Source of the DNA: an uncultured Acidobacteriota bacterium
Lineage (GTDB): Bacteria > Acidobacteriota > Vicinamibacteria > Fen-336
Length of the DNA stretch: 64,000 bases
Direction of reading: 5' to 3'
Assembly (NCBI GenBank): GCA_963729875.1
Contig: CAVSPR010000004.1
Location: forward strand, 56,886-120,885
The translations under genes and the position numbers were made by a program. Below, piece by piece: positions 980-62,098 of the stretch (positions are counted from its first letter, which is position 1; the number at the start of each line of letters is the position of its first letter). The notes under the pieces were generated by a model that was given only the letters and a program-made list of their open reading frames with translations, was not told the origin of the DNA and searched no databases.

Positions 980-2819
980 ATGTCCCTCGCCGACAAGCTC
1001 GAGCAGCTCCCCGCCCGCCCCGGCGTCTACCTCTTCAAGGGGGCGGAGGGGGGCATCCTCTACGTCGGCAAGGCCCGCGTGCTGCGCGACCGCGTGCGCT
1101 CGTACTTCCAGGCCTCGCGCCCGGCCGAGCTCCACAAGACCCGGATGGTCGGGGAGATCGCCGACCTCGACCTCGTGGTCACCGACAGCGAGATGGAGGC
1201 GCTCGCCCTCGAGAACAACCTCATCAAGCGCCACAAGCCGCCGTACAACGTGCGGCTCCGCGACGACAAGAACCACCCCTACCTCAAGCTGACCCTCTCC
1301 GAGGAGTACCCGCGCCTGTACGTCGTGCGCCGGCCCTCGGAGGACGGCAACGCCTACGGCGGGCCGTACATCCCGGCCAGCCTCGGGAGGAAGACCGCCG
1401 GCCTGGTGCGCAAGCTCTTCGGCATCCGCTCCTGCAAGGAGACGCTCGACGGGCGGCGCCCGCGGCCGTGCCTGCAGCACCAGATCAAGCGCTGCCTCGC
1501 GCCCTGCGTGGCGGAGGTCTGCCGGCTCGACCGCTACCGCCGCTCCTGCGAGGACGCGCGGCTCTTCCTGGAGGGCCGCACCGAGGAGGTCGTGCGCCGC
1601 CTGCGGCTGCAGATGGAGGAGGCCGCGGGGGCGGAGCGCTTCGAGGAGGCCGGCTCGCTGCGCGACCAGGTCCAGGCGCTGCTGCGCCTCGAGGCCCCGC
1701 AGAAGATCACCACCACCGACATCGAGGAGCGCGACCTGTTCGCGGCCCACGTCGAGGGCGACCGCGCCGCGGTGCAGGCCTTCAGCGTGCGCGACGGGAG
1801 GGTGGTGGCCCGGGAGGGGTTCCTCCTCGACCGCCTGACCGAGCCCGAGAGCGTGCTCGCCTCGACCCTCCAGCAGTTCTACGCCGTCGGGGCGCTACGT
1901 GCCCCGCGAGGTCCTGCTGCCAGGCGAGATCCCGGACCGCGACCTGCTGGAGCAGTGGCTGGCCGCGCGGCGGGGGACGGCCGTCCGCATCCACGTCCCG
2001 CAGCGCGGCGAGAAGGTCCGCCTCCTCGAGCTCGTCGTCCGCAACGCGCGGTTGGCCTTCGATCTCGAGTGGAAGCACCCCCGCCGGCAGTCGCGAGGAG
2101 ATCCTGCGAGCGCTGCGGGACCTCCTCGACCTCGAGGTCGAGCCCCAGCGCATCGAGTGCTTCGACATCTCGAACATCCAGGGCTCGGACGTCGTCGCCT
2201 CGATGGTCGGCATTCGAGGGCGGGCCTGCCGAAGAAGTCGGACTACCGGAAATTCCGGGTGAAGAGCGTCTCCGGCGCGCCCGACGACTTCGCCTCGATG
2301 CGCGAGGTGGTGGGCCGGCGCTACAAGAGGCTGCTCGAGGAGGGCAAGGACCTGCCCGACCTCGTGCTCATCGACGGCGGCAAGGGCCAGCTCGGAGCCG
2401 CGGTCGAGGCCCTCGAGGAGCTGGGCCTCGGGGACCAGCCCGTCGCCTCCCTGGCCAAGAAGGAGGAGCTGCTGTTCGTCCGCGGGGCGAGCGGGCCGAT
2501 CGCGCTGCCGCGCTCGTCTCCCGTCCTGCAGCTCGTCCAGCGGGTCCGGGACGAGGCCCACCGCTTCGCCGTCGGCTTCCACCGGCAGGCCCGCTCGAGC
2601 CGGACCCTCCGGTCCGAGCTCGACGACATCGCCGGCGTCGGCCCCGCCACCCGCCGCAAGCTCCTCTCGTTCTTCGGCTCGGTGCGGGGCGTCCGGGGCG
2701 CCGCCGAGGCCGAGCTGGCGGCGGTGGTGGGGAAGGCCACGGCCGCCCGCGTCCGCGCCCACTTCGACGGGGCGGAGCCGACTGGTTCCTCGACCGCCCC
2801 TTCCTCGTCGCAGCGGTGA
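980..2819 (+). pseudogene. uvrC: excinuclease ABC subunit C (UvrC), interrupted by four +1 frameshifts in this sequence
   Basis: MSLADKLEQLPARPGVYLFKGAEGGILYVGKARVLRDRVRSYF (GIY-YIG), CLQHQIKRCLAPCV, IECFDISNIQGSDVVASMV, KKSDYRKFRVKS, LIDGGKGQL, C-terminal HhH region. The frame moves forward by one at GGGG 1889-1892, CCCCC 2078-2082, GG 2209-2210 and CC 2225-2226. 1840 nt minus 4 is a multiple of 3. Confidence 0.9.
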
Positions 2820-2930
2820 ACCGGGTCGAGGCCTCCACCCACTGGGAGCAGCCCCGGCGATCGCCCGTCCGGACGTGTGGTAGGCTCGCCCGCTCTGCCG
2901 CGACCTGGCAAAGGAAGACAAGGAGTGAGA

Positions 2931-4551: not shown

Positions 4552-4584
4552 GCCCCGGCGATCTCGAGCCGAGCCTCCAACACG

Positions 4585-6772: not shown

Positions 6773-7665
6773 GCGAAGAGAACGACACGCCGGCGGACCC
6801 GCCCGCCGGGACCGCCCCGCCGGAGGAGCACCGCCCCGACGAGGGGGCCGCGGCCCCCGCCGTCGCCGAGCGCGTCACCGTCCCCGAGGGCATGGAGTCG
6901 GTGCTCCCCGAGGACGCGCCGAGGATCCTGCTGCCCCTCTTCGAGGGCCCGCTCGACCTCCTCCTCTACCTCATCAAGCGGGAGAAGATCGACATCCACG
7001 ACATCCCGATCGCCCCCATCACGCGCCAGTACATGGAGTACCTGGAAGTGATGCGCGAGCTGAACCTCGACGTGGCCGGCGAGTTCATGGTGATGGCGGC
7101 CACCCTCATCCACATCAAGTCGAAGATGCTGGTCCCGATCCAGCCCACGGAGGCCGAGGGGGACGAGGAGCACGTGGACCCCCGCGAGGAGCTCGTGCAG
7201 CGGCTGCTCGAGTTCCAGCGGTACAAGGAGGCGGCCGGGATCCTCCACCAGCAGGCCCAGATCCGGGCCGCCACGTGGACCCGGCCGGAGACGGTGCTGC
7301 CGAGGTTCGACGACGCGGGCGAGGAGATGCTCGAGGCGGGCCTCTACGACCTGATCGCCGCCTTCAGGGAGCTGCTCGAGCGGCGCAAGACCCTGCTCGC
7401 CCACGAGGTCGAGAGCGAGGGCCCGCCCGTCGAGCAGCGCATGGAGGAGCTCCTCGCGATGATCGCGGAGGGCGCCTCGCTCGAGTTCCTCGAGCTGTTC
7501 GCGACGCTCGAGACGAAGGCCGCGATGATCGTGACGTTCCTGGCCCTGCTGGAGCTCATCCGCCTCAAGCGGGTCCGCGTCTACCAGCGCGGGATGTTCG
7601 GGCCGATCCGGGTGTTCCGGCCGGTGGGGCCGCCGGGCGAGAGCGCGCCCGTGCCGGTGTCGTAG
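6769..7665 (+). CDS. scpA: segregation and condensation protein A
   Basis: GTG 6769 overlaps the trpS stop (GTGA). LFEGPLDLLLYLIKREKIDIHDIPIAPITRQYMEYL is the ScpA signature. Confidence 0.9.
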   Translation: MSEENDTPADPPAGTAPPEEHRPDEGAAAPAVAERVTVPEGMESVLPEDAPRILLPLFEGPLDLLLYLIKREKIDIHDIPIAPITRQYMEYLEVMRELNLDVAGEFMVMAATLIHIKSKMLVPIQPTEAEGDEEHVDPREELVQRLLEFQRYKEAAGILHQQAQIRAATWTRPETVLPRFDDAGEEMLEAGLYDLIAAFRELLERRKTLLAHEVESEGPPVEQRMEELLAMIAEGASLEFLELFATLETKAAMIVTFLALLELIRLKRVRVYQRGMFGPIRVFRPVGPPGESAPVPVS

Positions 7666-7679
7666 GGAGGAGAGGGCGC

Positions 7680-8539
7680 TTGGACGAGAGCGACGACCAG
7701 AAGGAGAAGGGAAAAGAGCCCGGCGAGGTGCCCGCGGTCGAGCCCGAGGAGGCGAGCGTCCTGCCGCCGCAGCTGGTGCGCGCCGTGCTCGAGGCGCTCG
7801 TCTTCGCCTCGCCCCAGCCCATCACCGCGAGGGAGATCTCCCGCGTCCTGCAGGGAGTGCCCCGGGAGGACTGGGAGAGGGAGCTCGAGGAGCTGCGCGA
7901 GAGACTACGCCCGCGACGATCGGGGCCTGCAGCTGGTCGAGGTCGCCGGCGGGCACCAGGTCACCACCCGCCCCGAGTACAACGACTGGGTGCGGGAGCT
8001 GCTCGACCCGCGGACGCCGACCCGGCTGTCGATCCAGGCCCTGGAGACGCTCGCCGTCATCGCCTACAAGCAGCCGGTCACCCTTCCGGAGATCATCGAG
8101 CTGCGCGGCGTCAAGTCGGGGGGCGTCGTGAAGACGCTCCTCGAGAAGCGTCTCATCCGGATCATGGGCCGCAAGGAAGTGGTGGGCCGGCCCATCCTCT
8201 ACGGCACCACGAAGCAGTTCCTCCTCCACTTCGGGCTCCGGGACCTCGAGGAGCTGCCCAAGATCGAGGAGTTCGCCGAGGTGCTGGGCGAGGAGGTGGA
8301 CGTGGCCGGGCTCAAGCGGGCGATCGAGTCGCCCCTGCCCGTGCAGGTCGGCCTGTCCGACCCCGAGGGTGAGCAGATCCCGCTCTTCGAGCCGCCGCCG
8401 GCGGAGGGCGGGGACGACGGAAGGCGGCACGACAGCGGACATGGCCGACGGCGAGACAATTGGCGACGAACCGTCGGCCGACGAGCCGTCCGCCGACGAC
8501 CCGTCCGAGCCACCCGGCGACGAGCCGAACGAGCAATAA
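7680..8539 (+). pseudogene. scpB: segregation and condensation protein B (ScpB) with acidic tail, two +1 frameshifts in this sequence
   Basis: TTG 7680 follows GGGAGGAGAG. LVRAVLEALVFASPQPITAREI.., then after ~7903-7906 YARDDRGLQLVEVAGGHQVTTRPEY..LSIQALETLAVIAYKQPVTLPEIIELRGV..GRPILYGTT. After GG 8419-8420 comes a high-GC3 acidic tail ADGETIGDEPSADEPSADDPSEPPGDEPNEQ ending TAA 8537-8539, just before a strong hairpin. 860 nt minus 2 is a multiple of 3. Confidence 0.85.
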
Positions 8540-8553: not shown

Positions 8554-8580
8554 TCTGGGGGGTGCGAAGCACCCCCCAGA
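8554..8580 (+). terminator. 12-bp perfect stem, GAA loop hairpin after scpB
   Basis: TCTGGGGGGTGC-gaa-GCACCCCCCAGA starts 15 nt after the TAA. It is followed by an A-rich stretch, not a U-tract, so the terminator function is inferred. Confidence 0.5.
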
Positions 8581-8620
8581 ACAAAGAAAGCTGGGCGAAG
8601 TCGTAGGCGTATCCCGTCCC

Positions 8621-8801
8621 TAGTCCCCATGGTCTTGATCTACCTTGCCCTCGTGGCGGTCCCCGCAGCTCTAGTCCCCGCCTGATCAATCGGCATCGAT
8701 CCGCCCTCGCCCTCGTGACGTCCGCCTCGCTCCAGTCCCCACCTGATCCATCCCCCTCACGGACTCGCCTGCCCGTCAAGTCCCCTTCTGGCGATATGAT
8801 C
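8621..8801. repeat. four imperfect tandem units carrying AGTCCCC-(N3-16)-TGATC
   Basis: AGTCCCC at 8622, 8673, 8734 and 8779, each followed by TGATC. The second half-motif GCCCTCGTG(G/A)CG(G)TCC occurs in units 1 and 2. There are five GATC sites in ~165 bp. Confidence 0.6.
8795..8800 (+). promoter_or_regulatory. candidate -10 box TATGAT, 6 nt upstream of the rluB GTG (leaderless mRNA suggested)
   Basis: TATGAT 8795-8800; GTG 8807; no Shine-Dalgarno in between. Confidence 0.35.
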
Positions 8802-19120: not shown

Positions 19121-20407
19121 TTGGAGAGGCGCGGCTTGTACTCAGAGATCCCGACCTACCACGAGCGGCTGAACCAGCTGACCGAGCAGCTCCGCGAGAA
19201 CGGCCACCTGGGCCTCGTGCTGATCGACGCCTCGGACCTCGCCCAGGTCGAGCACGACTACGGCTCGCTCGCCTTCGAGCAGGTTCTCTCGGTCGTGAGC
19301 GGCCTCGTCCGCGAGCTCCAGGGCGCCGAGGTGCGCACCACCGACATGCTGGCGCTCAACGAGCGCGGGGGCAACGCCTTCCTGCTCTTCCTCTCGCCGC
19401 GCCGGGGCGAGAGGGTGAGCCGCCCGCGGATCGCCGACCTCGAGTCGATCTGCCAGCGCGTGGACGAGCAGCTCAACCGCAAGCTCGCCGCGTTCAAGTC
19501 CCCCTACCTGCGCGGCAAGCGCCGGGTCACCGCGGGCTTCGCCGTCGTCTTCCACAACCCCCTCATCATGGCCGAGCGGGTCGTGGCCCGGCTCGTGAAC
19601 GAGGCGTGGGAGAGCGTCCGAATCCAGAGGAGGCAGGCCGACTTCCACACGCGCTGCCGGCTCCAGGACGTGCTGCTCGGGGACCAGATCACGACCGTCT
19701 TCCAGCCCATCGTGGACCTGCACGGGGGCGGCCTCCTCGGCTTCGAGGCCCTCTCGCGGGGCCCGGTCGGGACCCAGCAGCACAGCCCGGTCAACCTGTT
19801 CGAGGCCGCCGCCGCCTCCGACCTCGTCTTCGAGCTCGACCGGCACTGCCGGCGCCGCGCGCTGCGGACGGCCCAGGCCCTGCCCGCGCCGCACCACCTC
19901 TTCATCAACGTGGTACCGGCCTCGATGTACGACCCCGACTTCCAGGGGGCGAGCCTCATCCACCTGCTCGAGGGGCTGGGACTCTCGCCCGAGCGGATCG
20001 TGCTCGAGGTGAGCGAGCAGTACGCGATCGAGAACTACACCCTCTTCGTCGAGGCGCTGCAGAACTTCACGCAGATCGGGTTCTCGATCGCGGTGGACGA
20101 CATCGGGGCCGGCTACTCCGGGCTCGAGAAGATCGCCCACCTCAACCCGCGGTACCTGAAGTTCGACATGCAGCTGGTGCGCGACATCGACCGCGTCCAC
20201 GTCAAGCGCGAGATGGCGCGGGCGCTCAAGACGTTCGCGGACAAGATGGACTCCCTGATCATCGCCGAGGGCATCGAGCGCGAGGGCGAGCAACAGGCCT
20301 GCGTCGACCTCGGCCTGCACTACGGCCAGGGGTACCTGCTGGCCCGGCCCGCCCCCCTGGAGACGTTCAACCTCGGCCCGGTGGAGCCTTCTTCCGCTCG
20401 CGTATGA
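19121..20407 (+). CDS. c-di-GMP phosphodiesterase: degenerate GGDEF-like domain + EAL domain
   Basis: N-terminal half has a GGDEF fold with RGGNAF in place of GGDEF. EAL half is intact: [51 protein letters not shown]. Confidence 0.85.
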
Positions 20408-21783
20408 GCCGGGCGGCCTCGAGCCGGGCCGCGACGTCCTTCTCCCGGCCGCGGTCGGTCGGGCGGTAGTACCGCCTCCCGGCCAGCCCCTCCGGGAGGC
20501 ACTCCATCCCCGCGACTCCCTCGCTCTCGTCGTGCGCGTAGCGGTAGCCCTTCCCGTAGCCCAGGTCCTTCATGAGCCCGGTGGGGGCGTTGCGGATCCA
20601 CAGCGGCACCGGCTCTGCCCGCGTCTCGAGCGCGTCTCTCGCCGCCTCCCCGTAGGCCACGTAGAGGGCGTTGCTCTTCGGCGCCGCGGCGAGGTAGACG
20701 ACCAGCTCGGCGAGGGCGAGAGCGCCCTCCGGCAGGCCGATGAAGTGAACGGCCTGCTGCGCCGCCATCGCCACCACGAGCGCCTGGGGGTCCGCCATGC
20801 CCACGTCCTCGGAAGCGAAGCGCACGAGGCGCCGGGCGACGTAGAGCGGGTCCTCGCCCGCCTCGATCATCCGCGCGAGCCAGTAGAGGCCGGCGTCGGA
20901 GTCGGAGTTGCGGATGGACTTGTGCAGGGCCGAGATGACGTTGAAGTGCTCCTCGCCGGCCTTGTCGTAGAGGAGCGCCTTGCGGGCGAAGGCCTGCTGC
21001 ATCGCCGGGAGGTCCACCGGCCGCCGCCCGTCGGCGCCCGGGCGGCGCGGTCGTGACCGCCAGCTCGAGCACGTTGAGGGCGGTGCGGGCGTCGCCGTCC
21101 GAGGCCCCGGCGAGGAAGGCGAGGGCGTCCTCCGCGACCCCGGCCTGCCAGGAGCCGAGGCCGCGCTCCGGGTCGGCGAGCGCCTGGCGCAGGACCCGGA
21201 CGAGCTCCTCCCCGCCGAGGGGCTTCAGCACCACGACCCGGGAGCGGGAGAGCAGCGCCGCGTTCACCTCGAAGGAGGGGTTCTCGGTCGTGGCCCCGAT
21301 GAGGACGATGTCCCCGGACTCGACGTGGGCGAGGAGGGCGTCCTGCTGCGCCTTGTTGAAGCGGTGGATCTCGTCGATGAGGACGACGGTGCGCCGGCCC
21401 TCGCGGCGGCGCCGCTCCTCGGCCGCCCGCAGGACCTCGCGCACCTCCTTGACCCCGGAGAGCACGGCGCTCATCGCCTCGAAGTGCGCCTTCGTGAGGC
21501 GGCGGATCACGAACGCGAGGGTGGTCTTGCCCGAGCCCGGCGGGCCCCACAGGATCAGCGAGCGGAGCTGGTCCTGCTCGATCGCCCGCCGGAGCGGCCG
21601 GCCGGGGCCGAGCACCTCCTCCTGCCCCAGGATCTCGTCGAGGGTGCGTGGCCTCACCCGGTCGGCGAGCGGAGCGTCGGGCCGGGGCTCGCCGACCGGG
21701 ACCTCCCGGTCCCGCCCCCTGGAGAGCCGGTCCTCGGGAAAGAGCGACCCCGTTCCTTCCTCTCGCGGTCGCGCCATCCTCAT
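20367..21783 (-). pseudogene. rarA: replication-associated recombination protein A (RarA/MgsA), one +1 frameshift in this sequence
   Basis: [21 protein letters not shown], Walker [58 protein letters not shown]. After ~21033-21037: [37 protein letters not shown]. The ATG overlaps the upstream stop (ATGA, 21780-21783). 1417 nt minus 1 is a multiple of 3. Confidence 0.9.
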
Positions 21784-29643: not shown

Positions 29644-30680
29644 GCGGGCTCGAGGCGGAGGCGCGCCGCGATCTCGGCCCGCTGCCGGTGACCCTCTTCC
29701 ACCGCCAGGGGATCGCCCGTCCGCTGGAGGGCGAGGGCGGGGCAGAAGGGGAGGGAGGCGAGGGCACCGCCGGCCGCGACCAGCCGGTCGTTCGCGGCGC
29801 GAGAGACCGACACGGCCTCGAGCCGCTCCGCCGAGCCCGCCCACATCGCCGGCAGCGGGGTCTCGCGGACGTTGCCGAGGGGCGCACGCCGCCACTGGAT
29901 GCAGGGGTAGACGTTGCCCTCGGGGTCGACGGCGAGCGTCGTCAGCCCCACGCCGCAGTTCGTGCCCCCCTCCGCGCGCTCTTCGTGCGGCAGCCGGCCG
30001 ACCTCCTTGAGCAGGCGGTAGAGCCGCTCGACCGCCTCCGCCGAGGCTCGGTAGGCGAGCGGCCCCGGGTCGCCGTCGTCGCGGGGCGTGATGACGGGGT
30101 CGAAGCGCCAGGGCACGCCCCTCTCCTCCGCGATCCGCCTCATGCCGCTCCGTCTCTCCCTCGCTGAAGCAGGAGAGCGGGCGTCTTGAGCACGACCCCG
30201 ACCTTGCGGGCGAGGAGTCGGTCGAGGCCGCGGAGCATCGCGTCGAAGGAGCCGGGCGTCGCGGTGGCGCGGTCGTGGCTCTCGGCCCTCTCGCCGTGGA
30301 GGCTCATCTCGACGGCCATCGGTCGCAGCGCCGCCATCGCGTCGGCCATCGCCTCGGTGACGAGCGCGCCGTTGGTGAAGACGCGCAGGGCGAACGCGCG
30401 CTGCCGCACGCCGCGGGCGATCTCGAGGAACTGCGGGTGGGTGAGGGGCTCGCCCCCGGTGAGGGTCACGTAGAGCGTGCCGAGCTCGCGCAGGCCGTCG
30501 AGGACGGCCAGCCACTCGGCGGTGGAGAGGCCCGCGAACGTCGTGGTGGCGGGGGTTGTAGCAGAAGACGCACCGCCAGTTGCAGCGGTAGGTGAGCTCG
30601 AGGCTCGCCGAGATCGGCTGCGCCCGGTCGCGGGCCAGTCTGCTTCAGTCGCGCCGGAGGGCGTCCAGGTCGAGTGCCAT
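29640..30680 (-). pseudogene. radical SAM / SPASM-domain peptide-maturase-like enzyme; three +1 frameshifts and one in-frame TGA in this sequence
   Basis: MALDLDALRRD-TGA-SRLARDRAQPISASLELTYRCNWRCVFCYNP (CX3CX2C). LSTAEWLAVLDGLRELGTLYVTLTGGEPLTHPQFLEIA..MSLHGERAESHD. C-terminal GGTNCGVGLTTLAVDPEGNVYPCIQW..LPFCPA (SPASM cysteines). Shifts at ~30535-30552, GGG 30179-30181 and ~30144-30146. The ATG shares its A with the PqqD-like stop (TGATG). Confidence 0.8.
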
Positions 30681-31010
30681 CAGCCCTCGACCACGAGCCC
30701 ACGCTCGCGCAGGAGCGCGAGGAAGTCGCGCACGTCCTGGCGGGCCCGCGCCTCGTCGATCGCGAATCGCTCGACCACCGCGGCCACGAGGCCGTCCTCG
30801 TCCTGCTCCTCGATCATCGACCACACGGCGGCGCCCGTCGGGTTGAGGCCGAGGACGCGGCCCTTCGGGGACGAGGTTCATCAGGACGACCTCGTCGCCG
30901 ATCCTCTGCCAGGCGACGTCCGGGTGCCGGTGCAGGGCCACCCTCAGCTGCTGGCAATGCCGGCGAAGCACTGTCGGCTCGCCGCCGCCCTGCTTCTCGC
31001 AGCCGCTCAT
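30680..31010 (-). pseudogene. PqqD-family peptide chaperone (RRE), one +1 frameshift in this sequence
   Basis: MSGCEKQGGGEPTVLRRHCQQLRVALHRHPDVAWQRIGDEVVLMNLV, then after GGGG 30867-30870 (plus strand) PKGRVLGLNPTGAAVWSMIEEQDEDGLVAAVVERFAIDEARARQDVRDFLALLRERGLVVEG. 331 nt minus 1 is a multiple of 3. Confidence 0.7.
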
Positions 31011-31198: not shown

Positions 31199-34100
31199 TC
31201 AGAAGGGCACCTTCACGCCGTAGAGGACGCCCGACTTCGCTGCCGACCAGGAGGAAGCTGTCCGGGGACTCGACAGCCGTGTCGATCGAAGGCGCGCCGA
31301 TGCGTCCCTTCCCGTCGCCCAGGACCAGCGACTTCGCAGCTCGGGGCGGGGCGTGGTCGAGGTGCGAGCTGCCAGAGCCGTGCCGTTGGCCCCCGACGTA
31401 GAGGTAGTTCGCTCCCGCCAGTACAGGACGAGGGACGGGTTCGTGTCGCCCAGGGTCGTCCACTCCCAGTTCTGGGTCATGGTGCTCGAGCCGTCGTCCG
31501 GACAGGCTCCAGACCTCGTGGTGGTGGCGAAGAAGAGATCGTTGTTGTCCCGGTCGGTGAACACGAAGCCCTCTCACCGGGCCGTCCGAGGGCGCGAACG
31601 TCCGGGCGTCGCCGCCGGTGCGCCGCGTCGAGCGAGTAGACGGCGTCGTTGGCGACGTAGAGCCTCCCGTTGCGCAGGTCGGGCTCGTGTCGAATTCCCC
31701 GAGGTCCTGGTGGGACCGTCCAGCCGGCGCACGGTGCGAACGGGGCGGCGACGAGGCGGTGACCTGGAGACACCACACCGTCGGGAGGCCGGTGGAGAGC
31801 CGCCTCGAGGCGAAGTAGATCCGGTCGGTCGCGTAGTCGACCGCGGGAGAGCCGAGGACGGGCCCGAGCGTCTCCGCTGCCGTCGAAATCGCCGTCGAAC
31901 GCTGGGGGCGGTGCTGCCGTCGGACGGGCTCAGCGCGTAGAAGTGGCTCGCGAGGCGGGCGGTCTTGTTGGCCGAGCCCACGAGGACGAGGTCCTGCGGC
32001 CCGCCGTACTGCTGCAGGATGGCCCCCGGCGCCCCCGTGCATCCGCGCCGTGCCGGCCGAGGGGTCGACGCCGTCGAAGTCGGGAGATGTACCCCACAAC
32101 CGCTGACCCGTCTCCGTGTCGATGGCCTGCGCCCATCCCTCGTCGTCGCCGACGAAGAGGACGGACTTGCTCCGAACGTGACGAGGCCGCTCCGAACGGC
32201 ACGATGGGGGAGCGGGTGTGGACGACACCGCCCAGGGCCTGCGGCGTCCAGTCGTTGGGCCAGACGCCGCCGCTGCTAGCCGCGCTCCACGGAGTGCACC
32301 GTCCGGTCGTTCGACAACGCCACGACCCGAACTTGCCCAGGCTCGGCGGGACGACGGCCGTGGCGCCCGTCGAGTACGCCCACTTGACGGGACCCGTGGC
32401 GTCGAACGGCCGGGCCTTGACGAGCCGCCCCGGCGACCACTTCGCCGTCGGCGAGGCCTGGTGGACGAAGACCGCGTAGCAGTGGTCCCGGTCGAGGCCG
32501 AGGCCCGGGTGGTCCCAGAACGCGATGGCGCCTCCGCCCGGGCTCAGGATGCGTTGCCAGCCGGGACCGTCGGTGGCGCTGCCGTGGGGCAGTCCGGCAC
32601 GAGGGGGAAGGAGCAGGTCGTCCGGTGGTGCTCGGCCGTGTTCCACCGGATGCAGATCTCGTCGACGGTGAAGGGGCCGGTCGCGTTCACCCACTGCAGC
32701 CGGTTGGTGGGCGGTCGCGCCGCCGCGGGCCGTCACGGCCAGGAACTGCACCTCGCCCTCGTCGACGAGGGCCGACACGGTGACCATCAACTCGTTGGAG
32801 ATCGACGAGGCCGTCGACGGGCAGGTCGGCATCGAGGTGACCACGACCCAGTAGTCTCCCGGGCCCGGGGAAGTCGGTGCCCTTGAGGACGTACGTCGCC
32901 CCGGTCTCGCCCGGGATGTCAGTCACCGGCTCCGAGGCCCCGGACTTCGTCCGATAGCCCCACTGCCGGGACGTGATGGAGCCCCCGCCGTTCTCCTGCG
33001 CGGTGAGGGTGCCGCCGACGCAGTCCACGCACACGCCGAGCGGACCCGAGAACGAGACCGTCGTCGAGGCCCAGGATCCGGCGTTGACGGAGCGCGTGGC
33101 GGTGGCCGAGCAGGCGTCCACTCTCGTCGCCACGTCCAGCCTGTGCAGGCCCGACGTGAGGCTGTCGCCGGTGACGTTCAGGTAGAGGCTCGGCGTGAAC
33201 GTGCGCGGCGCGAAGTCCAGCTTCCAGGCGTACTCGTCCCAGCTCCCTTCGGTCGTGTACGTGGCGGAGGTGCAGAACTCCGCCGGGCCCTGGATGGCGA
33301 GCTGCGGCCCGAGAGTGAAGCTGCGGCTCTCCACCGGGCGCAGGTCCGGAAGGTCCGGCACCGAGAACCCGAGCCGATAGCGCCGGCCGGCGGCGGCGAT
33401 CGAAAGGCCCGTGAACGACGCCACCCCGCTCGTCAGCGGCACCGCGACGGGGCTGACGAGGCTCGCCGGAGGGTCGCCCCCGACGAGGGCCGGCGTGACC
33501 GTGCCGACGGCGCACGCGGCCACGCTGCCCCCGTCGTCGAGGGCCGTGACCTCCGCATTCAGAAGGTAGGGAGAGACGGGCACGCAGGCGGCCGGCTGCA
33601 CGGTGACCTGGAGGCTCCGGGCCTGGCAGGCGGTGCTCAGGAGGATCGACACGTCGTCTGAGTTCTTGTTCACAACCGCGAGGTCCGGCCAGCCGTCGTG
33701 GTTCCAGTCCGCCGCCACGACGAAGCTCGGCGAGAGGCCGGCCACGAAGTCCTCCGACCCCTGGAAAGGATCGGTGAGAGCCAGCGAGCCCTTGCCTCGG
33801 AGCACCTTGAGGCCCGTGGCCGCCACCGCGAGGTCGGTCTTTCCGTCGCGGTTCAGGTCCGCGGCCGCGGCGAAGAGCGTGAGGTCGGGGGCGGGAATGC
33901 GATCTGGAGTGTCGAGGAAGCGGGGTGCGGGCAGTGCCGCGTGGTCCCACTCGAAGACGGCCACCGTGTCGCTGCCGAAGAGGCCCGCGGCGAGGTCGAC
34001 GTCCCCGTCGCCGTCGAAGTCGGCCCCGGTCAGCGACACGGGTTCGTCCGCGGCGACCAGGGGGAGCGTGACCGAGGTCGGGAAGAGCCCCGAGCCGTCC

Positions 34101-36974
34101 CCGAAAAGGACGGTCAGGGTGTCCTGGGCGCTGCCGGCGTCGTTCGCGACGGCGAGGTCGAGGCGCCCGTCGCGGTTGAAGTCGGCCACGAAGACCGCCT
34201 CGGGCCTTTCCCCGACGGTGAAGACCTCGTCGGGGTTCGCGGCCAGCGGGTCGGTGAAGGCGATGCTGGGCGACACGCTGACGTTCCGCAGCAGCGTGAC
34301 GGTGCCGTTCCCGGCGGGGTGGCGGTTGGTGACGAGGAGGTCGAGGTCGCCGTCCCGGTCCACGTCCGCCGCGGCCAGGTCATCGGAGTAGGGGCCGGCG
34401 TAGAACTCCTGGCGGCTGCCGTACGTGCCGTTGCCGAGGCCGCGCCAGATCGCCACGGTGGTGCCGGTGGACTGGGTGGCCGCCAGGTCGAGGATGCCGT
34501 CGCGGTCGAAGTCCGCGGCCACGACGGCGGTCGGGCCGCCGGGTGCCCCGAGAGCGGGGCCGAAGGGGAGGAATGTCCCGAGTCCGTCGTCGTTGGAGAG
34601 CAGCGACACCGAGTTGCCCGCCGTGTTCACCACCGCCAGGTCGAGATCGCCGTCCCGGTCGAGGTCTGCCGCGGCGGCGCCGAGGGGCTGTGCCCCGACC
34701 CCGACCCTCCTGGCCTGAAGAAGCGACGGGGTCCGCGTGAGGAGCACCACGACCGCGTCGGAGGTCTTGCAAGGGACAGCCACGTCGAGGAGACCGTCGG
34801 CGTCCGCATCCACGGGGACGACGGCCTGCGGGCTCGAGCGTACGGGGTGGCTGCTTCCCGGGGCGGGGAGCAGGAACCCGGTGCCGCCCGCGCCATCGTC
34901 GAGGAGCAGGTCGACGGTGTGGATTCCCGCGGTCGAGACCACGATGTCCGGTCGGGCGCTGCCTCCCACCGGCACGAGGGCCACCCCGGTGGGGAAGGAG
35001 TCCACGGCGTAGGCCTGCGCGGTGGCGAAGGTCCCGTTTCCGTTGCCCCTCAGGACCGACACGCGGTTCGCCCCGTGGTCCGCCGTCACGAGGTCCGTCG
35101 TGCCGTTGGCGTCGACGTCCCCGGCGGTGATGCCCCAGGGATCGGACCCGACCGACGGGCTCGAGCCGAAGGCGAACGTCCCGTCGCCGTTGCCGAGCAG
35201 CACCCAGACGTTCCCGCTTCCCGAGCAGGCGACGGCGAGGTCGAGACGGGTGTCCGCGTTGAAGAAGCCGGCCACGAGGGCGCGGGGAGCGGTGCCGACC
35301 GGAGGTGGCGATCGGCGTGCCGAGACCGCCCGCCCCGTTGCCGTGGAGGAAGAAGACCTGGTTCGAGCCTTCGCTCGCCACCGCCACGTCGGGGGCGCCG
35401 TTGCCGTCGAAGTCGCCTGCGGCCACGGCGGACAGGTTGTTGCCCACGGTGACGGAGACGCTGCCGGCACCGGTGTCGAGGACACCGGTGCCGTCGCCAG
35501 GGAGGAGCAGAACCTTGCCGCTCCCGGCGGCGCCGAGCGCCGCCACCACGTCGGCGTGGCCGTCGAAGTCGAAGTCGGCCGTGGCCACGCCGCGGGGAGT
35601 GGGGCTCACCGGGTAGGCCTGCGGCGGCCCGAACCCGCCGGGGGCGCCGAGCAGCACCGTGATCGTGCTGCCCGCGTAGCTCCCGACGACGAGGTCCTGG
35701 CGCCCGTCGCCGTCGAGGTGGACGGCCGCCGCCGCCTGCGGCCCGTCCCCGGCCGGGTAGGACCTGGGGGCGTCGCCGAAGGACGAGAGGGCGCAGGTCG
35801 AGCCGGAGGCATTGTGGACGACCAGGACCTGGTTCGAGGTCAACGCCGACCGCACGGTGACAAGGTCGGGCCGTCCGTCCGAGGTGAAGTCGCCGGTGGC
35901 GAGGCCACGGGGTGAAGCTGTCGGCCCGAGGGCCGCCGCGTAGGGCGTCGTCCCGAAGGCCGAGGGAAACGTCGCGTCGCCCTTGAACGCCACCAGGCGG
36001 GGGCTGGCCGGCGTCTCGTCGAGGACCACGAGGTCGAGAGCCCCGTCCCGGTCGAGGTCCACCGCCGAGACGCGAGCCAGCTGACCGGTCACCAGCACGG
36101 TGTTCTGGGGGGTGAAGCTCGCCCCGGTCCCGCCCTCGAGGACCGAGACGTCTCCGGTGCCGCCGTTCGAGGTCAGGAGGTCGAGCCAGCCGTCCCGGTC
36201 GAGGTCGGCGGCGAACACGTCGTCCGGGGCGTCGCCCACCGCGAGGACGGGCCCGGCCGTGAAGCTCCCGCCGCCGTTGAGGAACACCCGCACCTCGTCG
36301 GAGGCCTTCAGGGCCACGGCGAGGTCGAGGTCGCCGTCGTGATCGAAGTCACCGACCGCGGCCGCGGCGGGGTCCTTTCCGGCGAGGTCGATGTTCGCCA
36401 GCGCGGTGCCGAAGGTCAGGTCGCCCTGCCCCCGGACCACGAGGACGCGGTCGGCGTCGTCGCTGACGACGACGAGGTCGAGGCGGCCGTCGCGGTCGAG
36501 GTCGGCGAGGAGGATGCGGCTCTGCTTGACCCCCACCGAGAAGGACGAGCCGGTCGAGTAGGTCGCGGTTCCCGTGCCCTGGTGGATGGTGACCTGCGTC
36601 GTGGCCCCGCTCGCGACGACGATGTCGAGCTTGCCGTCGCGATCGAGGTCCCCGGTGACGACGTCCACCGGTCCCGTGGCCGAGGGCGCCGAGGACGGGC
36701 CGGAGAACCCGCCGTTCCCGCTTCCGGACAGCACGTTGATGGTGTTCGTGACCCCGTTGGCGGTCACCACGTCCAGCTTGCCGTTGCGGTCGAAGTCGCC
36801 GACCGCCACCGCCAGGGGGACGGTGTTGAAGAGCGTCGAGCCGGACGTCTGGCTGCCGAAGCTCAGGGTCGTGCAGCTGTCGGCGCCGGCGGGGCGGGGA
36901 GCGAGCAGCGCGGCGGCGCAAAGCGGCACCGCCAGGCGGCGCCAGGCAGTGAGGGGCCTGCAGGCGCGTGTCAT
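31199..36974 (-). pseudogene. giant secreted FG-GAP/VCBS-repeat protein with Ig-like, FN3-like and PQQ_2/BamB-type beta-propeller C-terminal modules; many frameshifts in the last third
   Basis: GAGGAG then ATG 36974. MTRACRPLTAWRRLAVPLCAAALLAPRPAGA. About 20 FG-GAP units. Ig-like region (..TGATYVLKGTDFPGPG/DYWVVVTSMPTC..). Then ..NRLQWVNATGPF.., ..DHCYAVFV.., GPVKWAYSTG, propeller blades (EGWAQAIDTETGQRLWG, RIYFASRRL, DAVYSLDAATGG). Ends ..AGVLYGVKVPF TGA 31199-31201. Breaks at ~35301-35306 and ~32857-32863, and repeatedly over 32700-31200. No stop separates the modules in the reconstructed frame. Confidence 0.7.
33640..36850 (-). repeat. array of about 20 FG-GAP/VCBS repeat units (protein-level tandem repeats)
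   Basis: Recurrent ..GDFDRNGKLDVV.., ..GDLDRDGKLDIVV.., ..ADLDRDGRLDLVV.., ..ADFDRDGILDLA.., ..ADFNRDGRLDLAV.., ..ADWNHDGWPDLAVV.. spaced ~50-60 aa apart. Confidence 0.75.
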
Positions 36975-36995
36975 CGGCACTTCTCCTCTTCGAAA

Positions 36996-37014
36996 GGGGG
37001 CCGCTTCGGCCCCC
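36996..37014 (-). terminator. GC hairpin GGGGGCCG-aag-CGGCCCCC followed by TTT, between the small secreted-protein gene and the FG-GAP gene
   Basis: It lies 2 nt after the reconstructed TAG stop (37017-37019) and just upstream of the GAGGAG SD of the FG-GAP gene. The U-tract is short, so it may be an attenuator or processing structure rather than a full terminator. Confidence 0.4.
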
Positions 37015-37016
37015 GC

Positions 37017-37605
37017 CTAGTTGCGAATCGTGAACCGGACGGCCGGGCCGCAAGGGCTCGACTGGTCGTCCAGGTACGGCCTGCACCGTCCATCTCCCGA
37101 ACAGTCCGCCCAGGGTGATCGACGTGCCCGCCACCGGCAGGAGCGTCGTCACGCCGTACTGCGTGCGCGTCTCGGGTGTCGCCCACCACGGGGACGAGGC
37201 GCTGCACCGGCAGCGGCCGGGGGTAGCCCGGCACGTAGCGGGGCGGCGGGGACGCCGGCGCGCGCGTCGCGGCCCCCGAGCGGGTGCGGGCCGCCCGCTC
37301 CGAGGCGTCCGGCGGCGGCGCGCTGCTCACGAAGGGGACCGTGATCTCCTGGTAGAGGAAACCGCCCGGCGTGTACACCTTGAAGCGCAGCAGGTGGTCG
37401 CCCTGCAGGTCCTGGCGCAGGAGCGACTGGAACTGCAGGTCCAGCATCTCCCGACTCGAGAAGACCAGGTCCCGCGGCTGGGTCTTCAGGTTGGGGGCGG
37501 TCACGCGGATGCCCGCGCACAGCGGGTGGCTCCGGGTGACGGGCGCGCCGCCTCGGCGCCCGCCGCCACCGCCGGGAGGAGGACGAGGGTCATGAGAAGC
37601 CGCAT
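37017..37605 (-). pseudogene. small secreted protein, unknown function, several frameshifts in this sequence
   Basis: GGAGG 5 nt before ATG 37605. MRLLMTLVLLPAVAAGAEA signal. Then ..APNLKTQPRDLVFSSREMLDLQFQSLLRQDLQGDHLLRFKVYTPGGFLYQEITVPF.., ..TTLLPVAGTSITLGGLF.., ..GDGRCRPYLDDQSSPCGPAVRFTIRN TAG. The segments sit in three frames. Confidence 0.5.
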
Positions 37606-37613
37606 GGAGCCTC

Positions 37614-40600
37614 CTAGAACGACAGGTCGACGGCGTAGAAGACGCCCCTGGACGCTGCCGACGTGGAGCAGCACTGGGTACTGCGGAGTCGAACGACGGC
37701 GCCCCGATGATCGGGGGCCTGGGTCTCGAGCGTTAGCGAACGTGACGGGATCGCCGTGGTCGAGCCGAACTCCAGAGGCCGCACTCCCGGCCGCGGTCGC
37801 CCGTGTCCACGTCCTGGGTCCCCGAAGTAGAGGCCGGCCACGCCTCGGACCGTCGACAGGAGCGGCACGAGGGGTTGAAAGCCGTGTTCTTCCACTTCTG
37901 CGAGGCTGGACGTGGGGCCGGGGCACACATCGTCGCCCATGTCGTGACGGCCCACACGTTGTCCGTGCCCGGCGGTCGTCGTGAAGTAGATGTCGCGGCC
38001 GCGGTACGGTCCGAGCACGGGAAGCCCTTGATGTCCCCGGTCGCCGTGAGCAGGCAGCTCAGGATGTGCCGTTCGCGGCGGTCGATCGCCCAGAGCCGGC
38101 CGGCCTTGTTCACCACGTAGAGCCTCTCGCCGCGCGGAGCACCGGGCTGCTGTCGAAGTTCCCGAGCCCGGGGACGGCCAGCTCGGGAGTGTCGTCGTAC
38201 TTCTGGTGCGCCCAGCCGAACTGCAGCGCGTTGGACGGCGGCCCGAGCTTGAGGCACCACAGCGTGTGCTGCTGGCTGGCGTGTGCTGAACGTCGCGAAG
38301 TAGACCTGCCCGAGAGCGTAGTCCACGGTCGCCATCGAGGTGACGGCCCCGAGCTCGAGCGGGTCACCCACCTGGGGGTAGTAGTCGAAGACGGCGCCGG
38401 TGACGGGGTCGAGGGCGTAGAAGCGGTTGCCGGATGCCAGCCGGGTGCCGACGAGGATGTAGCTCCAGGCCCCGCCGTACGCCGTGAAGATGCCGCGGGC
38501 GCCGCGCCGCCGCCGGTGAACGCCACGTTCGCCGATCTGGGTGTCCCAGCCCGCGCGCCCGTGTCGGCGCGGATCGCGTGGACCCAGCCGTCCTGCGTCG
38601 TCAGGTACATCCGCGGCACGCCCCCGAGGGTCACGATCGGCGAGCGGGCCTGGGCCGCCGAGCCGAGGTTGGCCGAGCTCCAGTTCGCGGGCCAGGTGCC
38701 GCCCGCCGCGGGCCCGCGCGCCATCCCGTGCACGTGGTGGTCGTTCGACGGGGCGAGCACCTCCGCCCATGTGGAGCGCGGGCGGCGCGAGGGAGCGTCG
38801 CGCTGGTGGCCGGTGGAGTACTTCCACTTGACCGGGCCGCGGTGTGGGCGAATGGCGTTCCCTTGGCCGACACCCCCGCGGAGTACGGTCACCGGGGCTC
38901 GTCCCGGTAGTCCACGAAGACCGTGTAGCAGTACTGCGTGCCATTCGCCAGCGCGTGAGGTCCGCGTGGAGCTGTGCTCGTCTCGGGCGGCTCGGGCGTG
39001 ACGCGAGAATCCCGCACGCCTTCCGTGGACGACGGTCGTCGGCAGCCGAGCAGCCGGCGCCCGAGCGCTTGAAGCGGACGAGGATCGGCTCGGCGTACGT
39101 GCTCCACAGCGGGTTGACCCACTGCGAGCCGGTTCGCGCGTTGTCGGAGACGACCGCGAGGCCGATCACGGGCGGGTTGGCCTCGTCGTCGTCGAGGATC
39201 AGGCCGTAGCCGGTGCCCCTCAGGAGCCCGGCCCCGCCCGTCGGGGCCGACAGGTCCACGCGGAACTCTCGCTGCCGTCGCCCTGGGTGGCGTCCTTGTT
39301 CACCGGCACGACGACCGGCTTCTGCGTCTCGCCGGGGTGAACACGACGATCGCCCTCGGCGATCCCAGGTCGCCGGCAGTCCGCGTGCCTGGTCCCGCCG
39401 GCAGCTCGTACGCGACCTTCCAGTGGACACCCACCGAGCTCGCGCTCGGGTTGGTCAGCGTCACGCGAACGGGAAGGGCGTCGTCCCGCTGGGGGGCGGG
39501 GTGCCCTCCGCCGCTTGCACGTCGTTGATCGAGATGAGGCGGCGGCGGATCGTCGTTCAGATCGTGCCCGTGGCCTGCGGGTCGGCGATCGTGGCGTTCG
39601 TCGGGGTGGAGAGCTCGACGACGACCGTCTCGTCGGGCTCGAGCTTGATGTCGCCCTTCACCGCGACCTCGATCGTCTCCAGCGTGTCGCCGGGGACGAA
39701 GGTCGAGGGTCCCGCTCGCCAGCGCGTAGTCCTCGGGCGTCGCCGCCGTGCTCAGGTCGGTCCGGATCGCCCAGCTCACCGTGACCGTCTGCGAAGTCGG
39801 GAGGGGCTGCGTGAGGCCGGCCCTCAGCTCCACGTCGAACTTCAGCGGCGTCGTGCCCGGAGTCGCCCTCGAAGAGACCGCAGCGTCCGCGATCGAGATC
39901 TCGCGGCGTGGGAGGATGCCCCACACGTGCCCCAGCGGTCCCTGAAGAAGCCGGTAGGGGCCGGAAGCGCCGCGTGCTCCTGGAGGGTCCACATCCGGAC
40001 GTCGTCGGGGTCCACGACCGTGCTGCTGTAGGGGCCCCAGTAGTTCGTGGGGCCGCCCGAAGTCCTTGTAGTAGCAGGCCTTGCCGACCTCCACGGTGGC
40101 CTGCGCCCAGCTGTCCCGCCGCGCCCCCGGTGCGGAGGGAGAAGGCGGCCTCGGCGTACGCGCCGGCGTTGAAGCGCGAATAGCCGATCAGGAGGTCCTC
40201 GTTCGTGTTGACGGCGATGCTCGGGGTAGGCGAAGTGCGACTGCCCGCCTGCGTCGTCGACCAGGCCCTGCTGCGGGAGCCGGGACTCGTCGGGTCCGAT
40301 CTGCCACCACTGCACGGAGGCGCGGTCGGGGGCGGGCGAGGAAGACCGTGTGGGCCGCCCAGACGGAGCCGTTCCGGTAGACGACGTTCTGGATGCGCGA
40401 GTCGCCGGCGTGATCCGGCACGTGCAGGGGGTCGGGACAGTCGCCGCACCCGTCGGTCCCTACGCCTGCGGCAGGAAGTCTGGGGTCGGACACGAGGGGG
40501 ACGTCGGGCGCGACGTCCGACCAGGCGGGGCCCTGCGGCTCGCCGACCGGCTGCGAGGTCGGGGTCGAAGGCGGGGCCCGCTGATCTTGTACAGGCGGAG

Positions 40601-41340
40601 CTTCCGCGCTCGCGGGGTCCCAGGCCTGGAGGACGTAGATGTCGTCGACGGGCGTCGCGGTCTCGTAGTAGGTCGCCGCCGGCACCTGGGCTCCGCCGTA
40701 GCGTGGCGTCGCGATCGAGGTGCTGAAGCGTGCTGGTGGTCAGGTTGCCGCCGTACATCGCGGCCTTGTCGAAGACGTAGATCCGCGTGCCCAGAAGGCG
40801 TCGTGCCGGCTGGTAAAGGTTGATCTGGACGACGACCCGGTCCGCGCTGAAGCCGATGTCGGGTACTCGTCGCCCAGCACGAGCGTTCGCGGCGTCGAGG
40901 TCGATGGCCTTCATGTACCAGTGGTCCGACAGCGGCGTCTGCAGGTCCGGGACGCCGTCTTCGAGACGCCGACCAGGAGGACCGCGCGTTGCCCGAGTCC
41001 GGCTTGTCGCAGGCGGCAACGACCCAGCGCGCGGCGACCGGGTCGTAGACGACCCGGGGCGCGACGCGGCGGCACGGACGGACCCGAGCCGGTAGCCCGC
41101 CCAGAAGTACGACCGAGGTCCGTGGCCGGCTCCACCTGCGTGCCGCGCGAAGTCCTGGACGACATCTGGCTCTTCAGCATCACCACGAGCTGGTTCGGGC
41201 CGACGGCGCCGTTGGTGTGCGGCGGAGCGGTGTTGCCGTTGTCGGCGACGGCGACGGAACGGCGGCTCCCCGGCGCCCGCCCCCGCTGCGATCAGTCCGA
41301 TGGCCAGACTCAGCCCCAGCCAGCGTGCCTTCCGCCTCAT
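37614..41340 (-). pseudogene. giant secreted protein: unknown N-terminal domain, Calx-beta-like domains, FN3-like and PQQ_2/BamB-type beta-propeller module; many frameshifts
   Basis: ATG 41340, MRRKARWLGLSLAIGLIAAGAGA. ..ADNGNTAPPHTNGAVGPNQLVVM.., HWYMKAIDLDAANA..GTRIYVFDKAAMYGGNL.., SIAVNTNEDLLIGYSRFNAGAYAEAAF. Calx-beta-like ISIADAAV..TPEDYALASGTL.., RVTLTNPSASSVGVHWKV.., GTGYGLILDDDE. Then PPVIGLAVVSDNARTG.QWVNPLW.., GTQYCYTVFVDY, GPVKWKYSTG, blades (DGWVHAIRADTGA, GNRFYALDPVTGAVFDYY, RLYVVNKAGRLWAID). Ends ..RGVFYAVDLSF TAG 37614-37616. Confidence 0.65.
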
Positions 41341-59509: not shown

Positions 59510-60031
59510 TCACCTGCTCCTGTCGAAGCTCTGCGCGGTGGCCGGGGCCGGGGTGCCGCCGAAGTAGCTCGCGCCGTCCTGCCAGGACGTCGTCGCGGGG
59601 CTGAAGACGACGAGCGGCCGGTCCGACCGGGCGGCCCACAGCGCCCACAGCTCGTCCCGCTCCAGCGGCCCGACGAGCTGGGCGTCGAGGACGCCGAGCA
59701 CCCGCCCCCCGACCCGCTCCACGCGCTCGTCGACCGGCCACTGCTCCTCGCCGGCCCGGAGGGCGCGCCGGCCTCCCGGCCCCTCGTTGGTTGGCGCGAA
59801 GATCGCTTCGCCCGGGCCGAGCCCCGAGTCCGCCCACTCGCCGTGGGCGGCGTCGTAGAAGAGCCATCGCCCGGCGACGGGGTTCAGCACGAGCCGGTCC
59901 CCCGAGAGGTCCAGCGTCCATTCCCCCGTCGTCCCCGCGCAGTCCGGCAGGGCGCCCTCGGCCTGCCACCGCAGGAAGCGCCGCTCGATGTCGAGCTGGC
60001 TGGCGAGCCGGCCAGGGTCAGTCGAGGTCAT
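59510..60031 (-). CDS. hypothetical protein (last gene of a three-gene unknown operon)
   Basis: 173-aa ORF with high GC3. Its ATG (60031) lies inside the last codons of the upstream gene (14-nt overlap). I recognise no motif. Confidence 0.5.
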   Translation of the reverse strand: MTSTDPGRLASQLDIERRFLRWQAEGALPDCAGTTGEWTLDLSGDRLVLNPVAGRWLFYDAAHGEWADSGLGPGEAIFAPTNEGPGGRRALRAGEEQWPVDERVERVGGRVLGVLDAQLVGPLERDELWALWAARSDRPLVVFSPATTSWQDGASYFGGTPAPATAQSFDRSR

Positions 60032-62098
60032 TGAAGCGTCCCGCCCGGCGGTAGGACTGGACCATCGTGTCGATCTGCTTCAGTCGGGCGGCCTTCTCGG
60101 CCTCGGTCCCGGGTCCAGTGCGGACGCTCTCCGCCTCCTTCCGCCGGAAGGTCTCGAGGCCCTGGTCCTCGGTGCCGCCCGCTTTCGTCGCCGCGCGAAC
60201 CTCGTCGTGCACCCGGCACTCGGCGGCCTCCTGCCCGAAGTCGCCGGAGCCCTTGAAGCGCATGTCCGCCCCCAGCCGCTCCTTCCAGCGGGCGCGCCAC
60301 TCGGCCTCCGGCACCATCTGCCTCTGGCCCCCGCGCATCCCTTCCCAGTAGTCGAGCACGTAGCGGCGGCCGTCGGGCAGGATGACCCGTGTCGCCACGT
60401 GGTTGCAGGGCTTGATCCACGTGTCGTACGCGGCGAGCACCTGTCCGGGCACCGAGGAGTCCCGGACGACGTCCACGAGCGCGAGGTCGACGATCGCCGC
60501 GTCGGCGGCGTCGCCGAGGACCTCGCGCAGTCGCGCCTTCGTGTCCGCGACGCCGAGGTCTCCGGCCTGCTCGCAGCGGATGGGCTTGCTGGGCACGTGG
60601 CCTGCCGGGGGCAGGCCCGAGGCGTTGTTGCCCGGAGAATCGGAGGTGTAGACGGCCCACGCCACGGCGTCCACCACTCGCTGGACCGGGAGGACCTGGT
60701 CGTAGCCGGGGTTGACGACCCGGTAGCCCTGGTCGAGCAGCTGACGCTGCCCCTCTCGAAAGCCATCCTGGAGCCCGACCGCCACGGCATCGGCCCCGAT
60801 GCGCTCGGCGTCCTGTTGGACCTCGTCTTCCAGCGACCGGATCTCGCCGTCCCGCCGGTCGATCGACTGCCGGCGCGCATCGATCCTCCGATCGCCCGCG
60901 GAGATGTCACGGGCCACGTCGCCGAGGTCGTCGGGACGGCACATGTCGGCCAGGTCTGTCTCCGCCTTGCGGTCGAGCCAGGCGTGCCGCTGCCGGTCCT
61001 GGGCGTAGAGGTTCGGCGAGACCCACCCGCCAACCTCGGCGCTCCACACCTCTCCGAGGTCGTTCGTGTCGCCGTCGGCGTGGGGCGGCTCGGCGAAGAG
61101 CACCTGCGGGGGAGGCGGCGGCTCCGGCGCGGTGGTGAGAAGGCCGCCGAGGCCGCCGAGAAGGTCTCCGAGGCCGGCCCCGTTGGCGCGCGCGAGCAAC
61201 CAGGCGCCGAGGCCGGTGAGCAACCCGCTCCCGAAGGTCGCCGCGGCCGTCTCGCCCGCCGTCGGAGGTTCCGGCTCCCGCGATTCCGGTTCCTGCGGTA
61301 TGTCCCCGTCGTTTCCCCCGGCGTTCGACCCCCGGCGCCCCCGGCGTCCGGGCTGGCGGCCGCCTCGCCGGGTGCCGCCGCCTCGACGCCCGTGGCCGGC
61401 TCGGGGACGGCCGTCGGTTCCGCCGTCGGCTCCGCCGTCGGCTCGCTCGGGCGGGTGGCGGGGGGCGAGAGCTTCTGCGACGACTGCAGCTCGCCGACGG
61501 GGAGCTGCAGCAGGCAGCCGTAGGACCAGGGATCGAAGGCCTGGTTTCGCTCCTTCCACTGGTCGTACATGACGAAGCGCCCCTTGGCGCCCTCTCCCAC
61601 CCATTCCATCTTGCGGTCGACGATGTGGCCCTCGACCACGCTGACCGTCATCTGCAGCCGGCCGTCCGCGTCGGACTGACCGGTCACGACACCTTCGTAG
61701 TTCACGCGCATGTACTCGCCGTCGTCCCGGTCCTTGCAGCTGCGGTAGTAGTTGCGCGCCCGTGAGACCCATCGCCCCTCGAGGACCCCGCGGACGAAGG
61801 TGGCGCGGATCTCCTGCTGATAGTCGATGTCGACGATGCAGTCAGGAACACTGTGGTGATCCGTGTGCGTGTACGTCTGGGCGACCTCGGTTCCCCGGAA
61901 CCGGAAGACGGCCTTGTCGCCTTCCAACTGCTCCGCGGTCAGCTTTCCGGAGCCTGTTTTGTCCCGATACCACCCGCTCGTGGGCCGGACGTCGAAGTCC
62001 CGCGGCAGCAGGAGCAGCACCTCCTCGGCCCACCCGGGACCGGCGAGCCCCGCCGCGAGGAGAGCGGCGATGCAAAGGGGCCGACCCGCGCGCCTCAT
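60018..62098 (-). pseudogene. secreted/membrane-anchored protein of unknown function with (EPTA)n linker; two extra bases in G5 runs
   Basis: ATG 62098 overlaps the upstream stop (ATGA). MRRAGRPLCIAALLAAGLAGPGWA signal. ~200-aa N-terminal domain; PSEPTAEPTAEPTAVPEP linker. After 61314-61336 the frame is displaced by two bases: ..IPQEPESREPEPP.., Gly-rich hydrophobic FGSGLLTGLGAWLLARANGAGLGDLLGGLGGLL. ~420-aa C-terminal domain (..KPIRCEQAGDL..CNHVATRVILPDGRRYVLDYWE..). 2081 nt minus 2 is a multiple of 3. Confidence 0.6.
61410..61445. repeat. 12-nt unit x3 tandem repeat (GCCGTCGGYTCS) encoding EPTA-EPTA-EPTA on the minus strand
   Basis: gccgtcggttcc / gccgtcggctcc / gccgtcggctcg, read directly from 61410-61445. 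Confidence 0.85.

Follow-up and report, generated by a model that had tools for sequence, protein, structure and literature searches.

The question raised by this locus is whether the conserved genes that repeatedly jump reading frame in it, uvrC, scpB and rarA among them, are genuine pseudogenes or products of a faulty assembly. The locus is a 64,000-nt stretch of an uncultured Acidobacteriota bacterium (GCA_963729875.1, contig CAVSPR010000004.1), analysed at its full length and called the window here; it corresponds to C4:56886-120885 of a 5.74-Mb genome with 72% G+C. A first-pass annotation, made from the sequence alone, had listed 15 frameshifts, read them as consensus or basecalling error and held the affected genes to be intact. 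That central inference was borne out by short-read contigs, by open orthologs and by a genome-wide defect that recurs in other near-contiguous metagenome-assembled genomes (MAGs). We hold with high confidence that the breaks are uncorrected single-base consensus errors of a long-read MAG and not real pseudogenes. The evidence supports uvrC, scpB, rarA and the radical SAM (rSAM), PqqD and FG-GAP genes being intact in the organism. The apparent pseudogenes are an artefact, and there is nothing biologically new in them.

Extra bases in conserved genes

Five of the broken genes encode conserved proteins, the last of them a recognition protein of the type associated with ribosomally synthesised and post-translationally modified peptides (RiPP).

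980..2819, forward strand: uvrC (GIY-YIG, UVR, RNase H-like and HhH domains), with four extra single bases
7663..8539, forward strand: scpB, with an extra base at ~7899-7902 (GAG[A]GAC) and a second, predicted +1 shift at ~8415-8420
20388..21783, reverse strand: rarA/mgsA (AAA+ ATPase, MgsA_C), with an extra C at 21035 inside a G-run (GTCGG[C]GCCC)
29647..30641, reverse strand: radical SAM/SPASM maturase, with extra bases at ~30146, ~30180 (GGG[C]G) and ~30531 (CC>CCC)
30682..30950, reverse strand: PqqD-like RiPP recognition protein, with a +1 shift at 30863-30871

On 57 kb of the window we placed Logan short-read contigs drawn from four wetland runs. At 5/5 covered coding breaks (all four of uvrC and that of rarA) the extra base was absent from these contigs, which are 98.7-100% identical to the window. 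In uvrC, contigs of 97-99% identity omitted one base at ~1885-1889, 2093/4, 2208 and 2218, and the first two of these sites were both gapped in one 310-nt contig with 4 mismatches. In rarA, an X4 contig of 295 nt matched without a mismatch and was gapped once, at 21035; no other indel was found across 20-37 kb. No indel was seen in the short-read contigs over the intact genes that they covered, nor in those over 44-64 kb, many of which matched perfectly. The comparison with independent short reads that had been suggested thus upheld the error reading at each covered coding site, and the remaining ten sites were not spanned: no near-identical contig crosses the sites in scpB and at 60-62 kb, and those in rSAM, PqqD and FG-GAP are sparsely covered.

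Comparison with relatives gave the same picture. The breaks do exist in the deposited sequence, and every resolvable break on the original list was one extra base relative to the relatives. Pfam confirmed the names UvrC, ScpB, RarA/MgsA, rSAM-SPASM, PqqD and FG-GAP, with domain matches cut at the breaks. The uvrC gene is 1840 nt long, or 1836 nt minus its four extra bases, and its translation passes through frames 0>1>2>0>1. Alignment by blastn with seven same-genus orthologs revealed exactly four extra bases, at ~1886-1889, 2093-2095, 2208-2212 and 2218-2224. The second of these had been assigned to CCCCC 2078-2082, but it falls at 2093-2095, where the base that is extra against the relatives is a G (CGC[G]AGG). 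The uvrC orthologs are cleanly open in 6/7 of these relatives; the seventh, from G012, has frame errors itself, and its indels differ from those of the window.

The first scpB site (~7901) is +1 against relatives, both by cumulative offsets to G002, G004 and G007 and by tblastn of their proteins. At the second (~8417) the +1 frame would continue as an acidic C-terminal tail up to the stop TAA 8537-8539; we infer this break because G002 has a similar acidic tail and because the stop directly precedes a hairpin at 8555-8579. The rarA site at ~21035 is +1 also against the orthologs of relatives. The rSAM gene shows a net +2 within 30147-30182 and +1 at 30530, so that its N- and C-terminal parts share a frame and its middle is out. 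Orthologs of scpB, rarA, rSAM, PqqD, FG-GAP and a 1253-amino-acid (aa) protein described below are open in cleaner assemblies of the genus, which are intact at the break positions. Outside the listed breaks, phase changes against the cleaner relatives G002, G004 and G007 all fall at gene boundaries. Identity to orthologs was equal before and after the breaks, in agreement with the earlier remark that the flanking peptides are undegraded. The long genes that had been called intact (gcvP, uvrB and two kinase genes) showed no break in a codon-usage frame scan. A single -1 difference against G007:C3 at 46128, near the 5' end of uvrB, was considered as a window error and rejected; a perfect short-read contig (46045-46182) backs the window, and the difference is that of G007.

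Number, direction and context of the breaks

We trained a codon-usage model on 1537 long open reading frames of the genome and ran it as a seven-state Viterbi decoder (non-coding plus six frames). A same-strand frame switch was taken as a gene boundary if the upstream frame stops within 36 nt, and otherwise as a frameshift. The model recovered all breaks listed earlier and revealed 823 frameshift-type switches genome-wide (567 '+1' and 256 '-1/+2'), or 1331 (901 and 438) with shorter segments allowed, which gives an average spacing of about one break per 4-7 kb. The window alone holds at least 50, mostly in the 3' end of the FG-GAP gene and in the 1253-aa-type gene; the 15 sites given at first as all the resolvable ones are therefore only part of the set. 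With the same model, the cleaner relatives G002, G004 and G007 gave 0 breaks in 144 kb, and two same-genus MAGs with few contigs and 83-86% completeness gave 10 breaks in 49 kb (G009) and 17 in 34.5 kb (G012). The frame breaks seen on G009:C11 (L018-L020) and G012:C8 (L021-L022) are dense and mostly '+1'. Randomly drawn '+1' calls on other contigs of the genome cleanly split single conserved genes. Among those sampled were an FGGY kinase, whose N-domain and C-domain are read in different frames, and a TonB-type barrel that matches its profile at positions 198-409 in one frame and carries on at 416-590 in the next.

The breaks are strongly clustered. Over 568 10-kb bins the dispersion index is 4.9; 203 bins are empty against 55 under a Poisson distribution, 28 bins hold at least 10 breaks against 0.1 expected, and 44% of the breaks are concentrated in the top tenth of bins. 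The genes rpoB and rpoC, examined as candidate broken essential genes, were intact, which is consistent with such a clustered distribution.

The errors were described at first as one-directional, with no site in need of an added base. Extra bases are indeed favoured, at a ratio of extra-base to missing-base type of ~2:1 genome-wide, but not exclusively. Exactly one ortholog residue is left unmatched at six '+2' events (32324, 31678, 31407, 38549, 39924 and 39465), which indicates a missing base at each of them. Two other '+2' events, at 32581 and 38004, leave no residue unmatched and resemble two extra bases. Short-read contigs add two missing bases outside genes.

8703 and 8719, no strand: two missing assembly bases in non-coding DNA, from short-read contigs

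Both gaps appear in an X4 contig (151 nt, 0 mismatches, 2 gaps) and in an X13 contig (201 nt, 1 mismatch, 2 gaps).

The association with homopolymers that had been proposed was not found either. A G/C run of at least 4 was present within 20 nt for 37% of '+1' breaks, against 38% for coding positions picked at random; any link of the breaks to homopolymers is no stronger than chance. At several sites the extra base does not extend a run at all. An extra A is apparent in uvrC (GGC[A]TTC) and in scpB (GAG[A]GAC) and an extra T in FG-GAP (ACC[T]CC), and an extra C splits a G-run at rarA, where the perfect-match contig fixes it, and apparently at the second rSAM site. Some sites are short-run extensions, such as CC>CCC at 30531. 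This result argues against the homopolymer subtype only, and not against consensus error.

Two further parts of the window hold features of their own.

8555..8579, forward strand: perfect 10-bp G/C-rich hairpin CTGGGGGGTG-cgaag-CACCCCCCAG, directly 3' of the scpB stop
60018..62100, reverse strand: gene without family match, whose single net +2/-1 break (~61304-61336) falls in a low-complexity linker

Judged from its sequence, the hairpin (G6/C6) looks like a terminator stem; it is followed by an A-rich, not a T-rich, tract, its k-mers occur at very high multi-organism depth in all four metagenomes, and it matched no Rfam family. The stretch 8600-8760 between scpB and the next gene, which contains 8703 and 8719, is pyrimidine-rich, carries repeated TAGTCCCC...CCTGATC motifs and has no Rfam match. 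Rfam and tRNA scans of the whole window gave no matches.

The N-terminus of the 60018-62100 product resembles a signal peptide; the protein also has a linker rich in Pro, Glu and Ala and a ~430-aa C-terminal region. No Pfam family matched it, although its corrected peptide had been called family-typical, and within the genus a relative turned up in G007 only (45% identity). Its frame had been restored by deleting one base from each of two G5 runs within 61314-61336; the break at 61304-61336 is instead either a net +2 or a net -1.

The 31-41 kb hotspot

The breaks of the window are densest at 31-41 kb, where three adjoining genes are affected.

31205..36945, reverse strand: FG-GAP/VCBS-type repeat protein, ~1900 codons, with ~15 breaks (eleven '+1', four '+2/-1')
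37023..37612, reverse strand: small protein of ~200 aa (205-aa gene), with +1 breaks at ~37171-37176 and 37077-37081 and a weaker '+2' at ~37547 from L039
37617..41274, reverse strand: large secreted protein (intact ortholog 1253 aa), with ~22 breaks (~10 '+1', ~12 '+2/-1')

Intact orthologs of all three (1844-1913 aa for FG-GAP, ~200 aa and 1253 aa) were available on the G002 contig C86 and on two JGI short-read contigs, L039 and L082. The FG-GAP gene, taken earlier to be about 4 kb long, spans 36945-31205, or ~1900 codons. Its breaks were located with a frameshift-aware protein-to-DNA aligner against the orthologs of G002:C86 (1844 aa) and L039 (1913 aa), and lie at 35300, at 32869 and at ~13 places between 32706 and 31235, so that the last 1.7 kb holds 13. 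Twelve were still called at a frameshift penalty of -30, identity was 50-80% in every segment, and the frame changes fell at the same places in the independent codon-usage scan. Alignment with L082 placed the extra T of this gene at 35303. For the 1253-aa-type gene, three orthologs concurred on several break sites.

The side-by-side position of the radical SAM/SPASM and PqqD-like genes (a RiPP-type pair, 28834-31040) with the giant FG-GAP protein of ~1900 aa and the 1253-aa-type secreted protein (31205-41274) was also noted; the block 28834-41274 is strain-specific and syntenic with G002:C86 and with the JGI contig L039.

Break density in the hotspot is ~1 per 130-170 nt, ~30x the genome mean, and deletion-type events are included. 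The share of 31.4-41.3 kb found in public runs is 0.05, against 0.25-0.35 for core genes, and this near-absence marks the stretch as strain-specific DNA. A search of metagenome contigs found no near-identical copy of the FG-GAP region; intact orthologs were present at 67-72% identity only. Such a combination would also suit a different account, in which the core-gene breaks are errors and 31-41 kb is an accessory island that is truly in decay or heterogeneous in the population, such as a set of surface-protein genes with real indel polymorphism among co-assembled strains. We consider this account improbable. If more than 20 neutral indels had truly accumulated, many substitutions including nonsense codons would be expected too, but the corrected frames show GC3 (G+C at third codon positions) of 0.89-0.93 and almost no stops. 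In-frame stops number 0/1890 codons in the corrected FG-GAP frame (GC3 0.93) and 2/1201 in the corrected 1253-aa-type gene, whose GC3 of 0.89 compares with 0.95-0.96 in the G002 orthologs; part of that gap is due to imprecise break placement. Segment identities are flat at 50-80%, and similar hotspots occur throughout the genome (the 28 bins with at least 10 breaks). A mixed-strain consensus would, moreover, itself be an assembly artefact and not a property of one genome. The narrower version, a strain-specific surface-protein island with very recent indel-driven inactivation or extensive strain indel polymorphism, has an equally slim chance of being right.

Cause of the breaks and comparison with known systems

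Estimates put the completeness of the genome assembly, which consists of 11 contigs only, at 86% and its contamination at 0.7%. Fragments of the window were found in wetland, soil and sediment metagenomes, the best share of the window in any public run being 0.35, and their occurrence there marks the genome as a MAG. An assembly so contiguous and yet so low-scoring (11 contigs against 86% completeness) has the pattern of uncorrected long-read MAGs. Two MAGs have been reported to rise from ~85% to 94-95% completeness once frameshifts were corrected, with the effect largest at low coverage (PMC8103633). The proovframe preprint (10.1101/2021.08.23.457338) gives the raw error of PacBio continuous long reads (CLR) as ~8% insertions and 3% deletions and that of Nanopore as balanced or deletion-biased, and describes regions that are locally heterogeneous or of low coverage as effectively unpolishable.

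We propose that a near-contiguous MAG was built from noisy long reads without adequate correction of its consensus. The single-base indels left behind, mostly spurious extra bases and not tied to homopolymers, would then break the reading frames, and the errors would pile up in strain-specific hotspots such as 31-41 kb, where read support was probably poorest. Low or mixed-strain coverage may be the cause of the hotspots. A raw error of the PacBio CLR type is suggested by the 2:1 insertion bias without homopolymer dependence. The breaks bear the marks of consensus error: accurate reads do not show the extra bases at the covered coding sites, orthologs are intact, the defect is genome-wide in unrelated genes, and there is no sequence decay.

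Some points weigh against this explanation. The read-level check spans 5/15 of the sites listed earlier, and its contigs are sparse (depth ~1-5) and come from runs other than the source. The case for the hotspot rests on orthologs of 50-72% identity and on the absence of decay, its breaks having read-level coverage of 0. The missing homopolymer association is unusual for Nanopore-type errors, and the exact technical cause is not settled.

If the breaks were real instead, the organism would have undergone massive recent pseudogenisation, DNA-repair and chromosome-segregation genes included. In its favour, the deposited sequence does contain the breaks, most sites lack a direct read check, and mutation rates might in principle rise if uvrC or rarA were lost. 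We nevertheless judge this very unlikely, even less likely than the decaying island. At every site that near-identical short-read contigs cover, the extra base is missing from them, and 820-1330 breaks have come without in-frame stops, loss of codon bias or drop in identity. Bacterial pseudogenes show a deletional bias, and the insertion bias here runs opposite to it. The defect is common only to other long-read-like MAGs of the genus, each of them broken at its own sites. That the extra bases are real and bypassed by programmed +1 ribosomal frameshifting, transcriptional slippage or RNA editing, as the mostly uniform +1 direction and the undecayed downstream peptides might suggest, has a negligible probability, since the break sites share no motif and lie in heterogeneous contexts, orthologs read straight through at the same positions, deletion-type breaks occur too, and the base is already absent from short reads at the DNA level.

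With consensus error as the preferred explanation, gene calls, pseudogene labels, completeness and any inferred loss of DNA repair (uvrC, rarA) or chromosome segregation (scpB) are unreliable when taken from this genome, and at least two other near-contiguous MAGs of the genus, G009 and G012, call for the same caution. Any finding from these genomes that depends on a frameshift, a split gene, an odd fusion or a 'pseudogene' should be given little weight unless the frames are corrected first. The error hotspots coincide with strain-specific regions, precisely those from which novel-looking genes are likely to be described.

Among known systems, programmed +1 frameshifting of the prfB type shares with this locus the need for a +1 shift to obtain the full protein. 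In the prfB type, orthologs conserve the site, which lies in a defined slippery or stop context, whereas the sites here are unique to the assembly and have no common motif. Mycobacterium leprae and host-restricted symbionts are cases of reductive genome evolution with genuine pseudogenes, and share with this genome many frameshifted genes, repair genes included. Their pseudogenes, in contrast, show deletional bias, in-frame stops, relaxed codon bias, amino-acid decay and lesions common to close strains, and none of these is seen here. The likeness is to long-read assemblies (Nanopore or PacBio CLR) with residual indels (PMC8103633; PMC9262707; proovframe preprint, 10.1101/2021.08.23.457338), in which conserved genes are likewise split by single-base indels, contigs are few, marker completeness is reduced (86% here), short reads contradict the consensus, and errors are concentrated where coverage or population homogeneity is poor. 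In Nanopore assemblies homopolymers are the usual culprit, whereas no homopolymer enrichment was seen here, and the ~2:1 excess of insertions resembles the raw error of PacBio CLR more than that of Nanopore.

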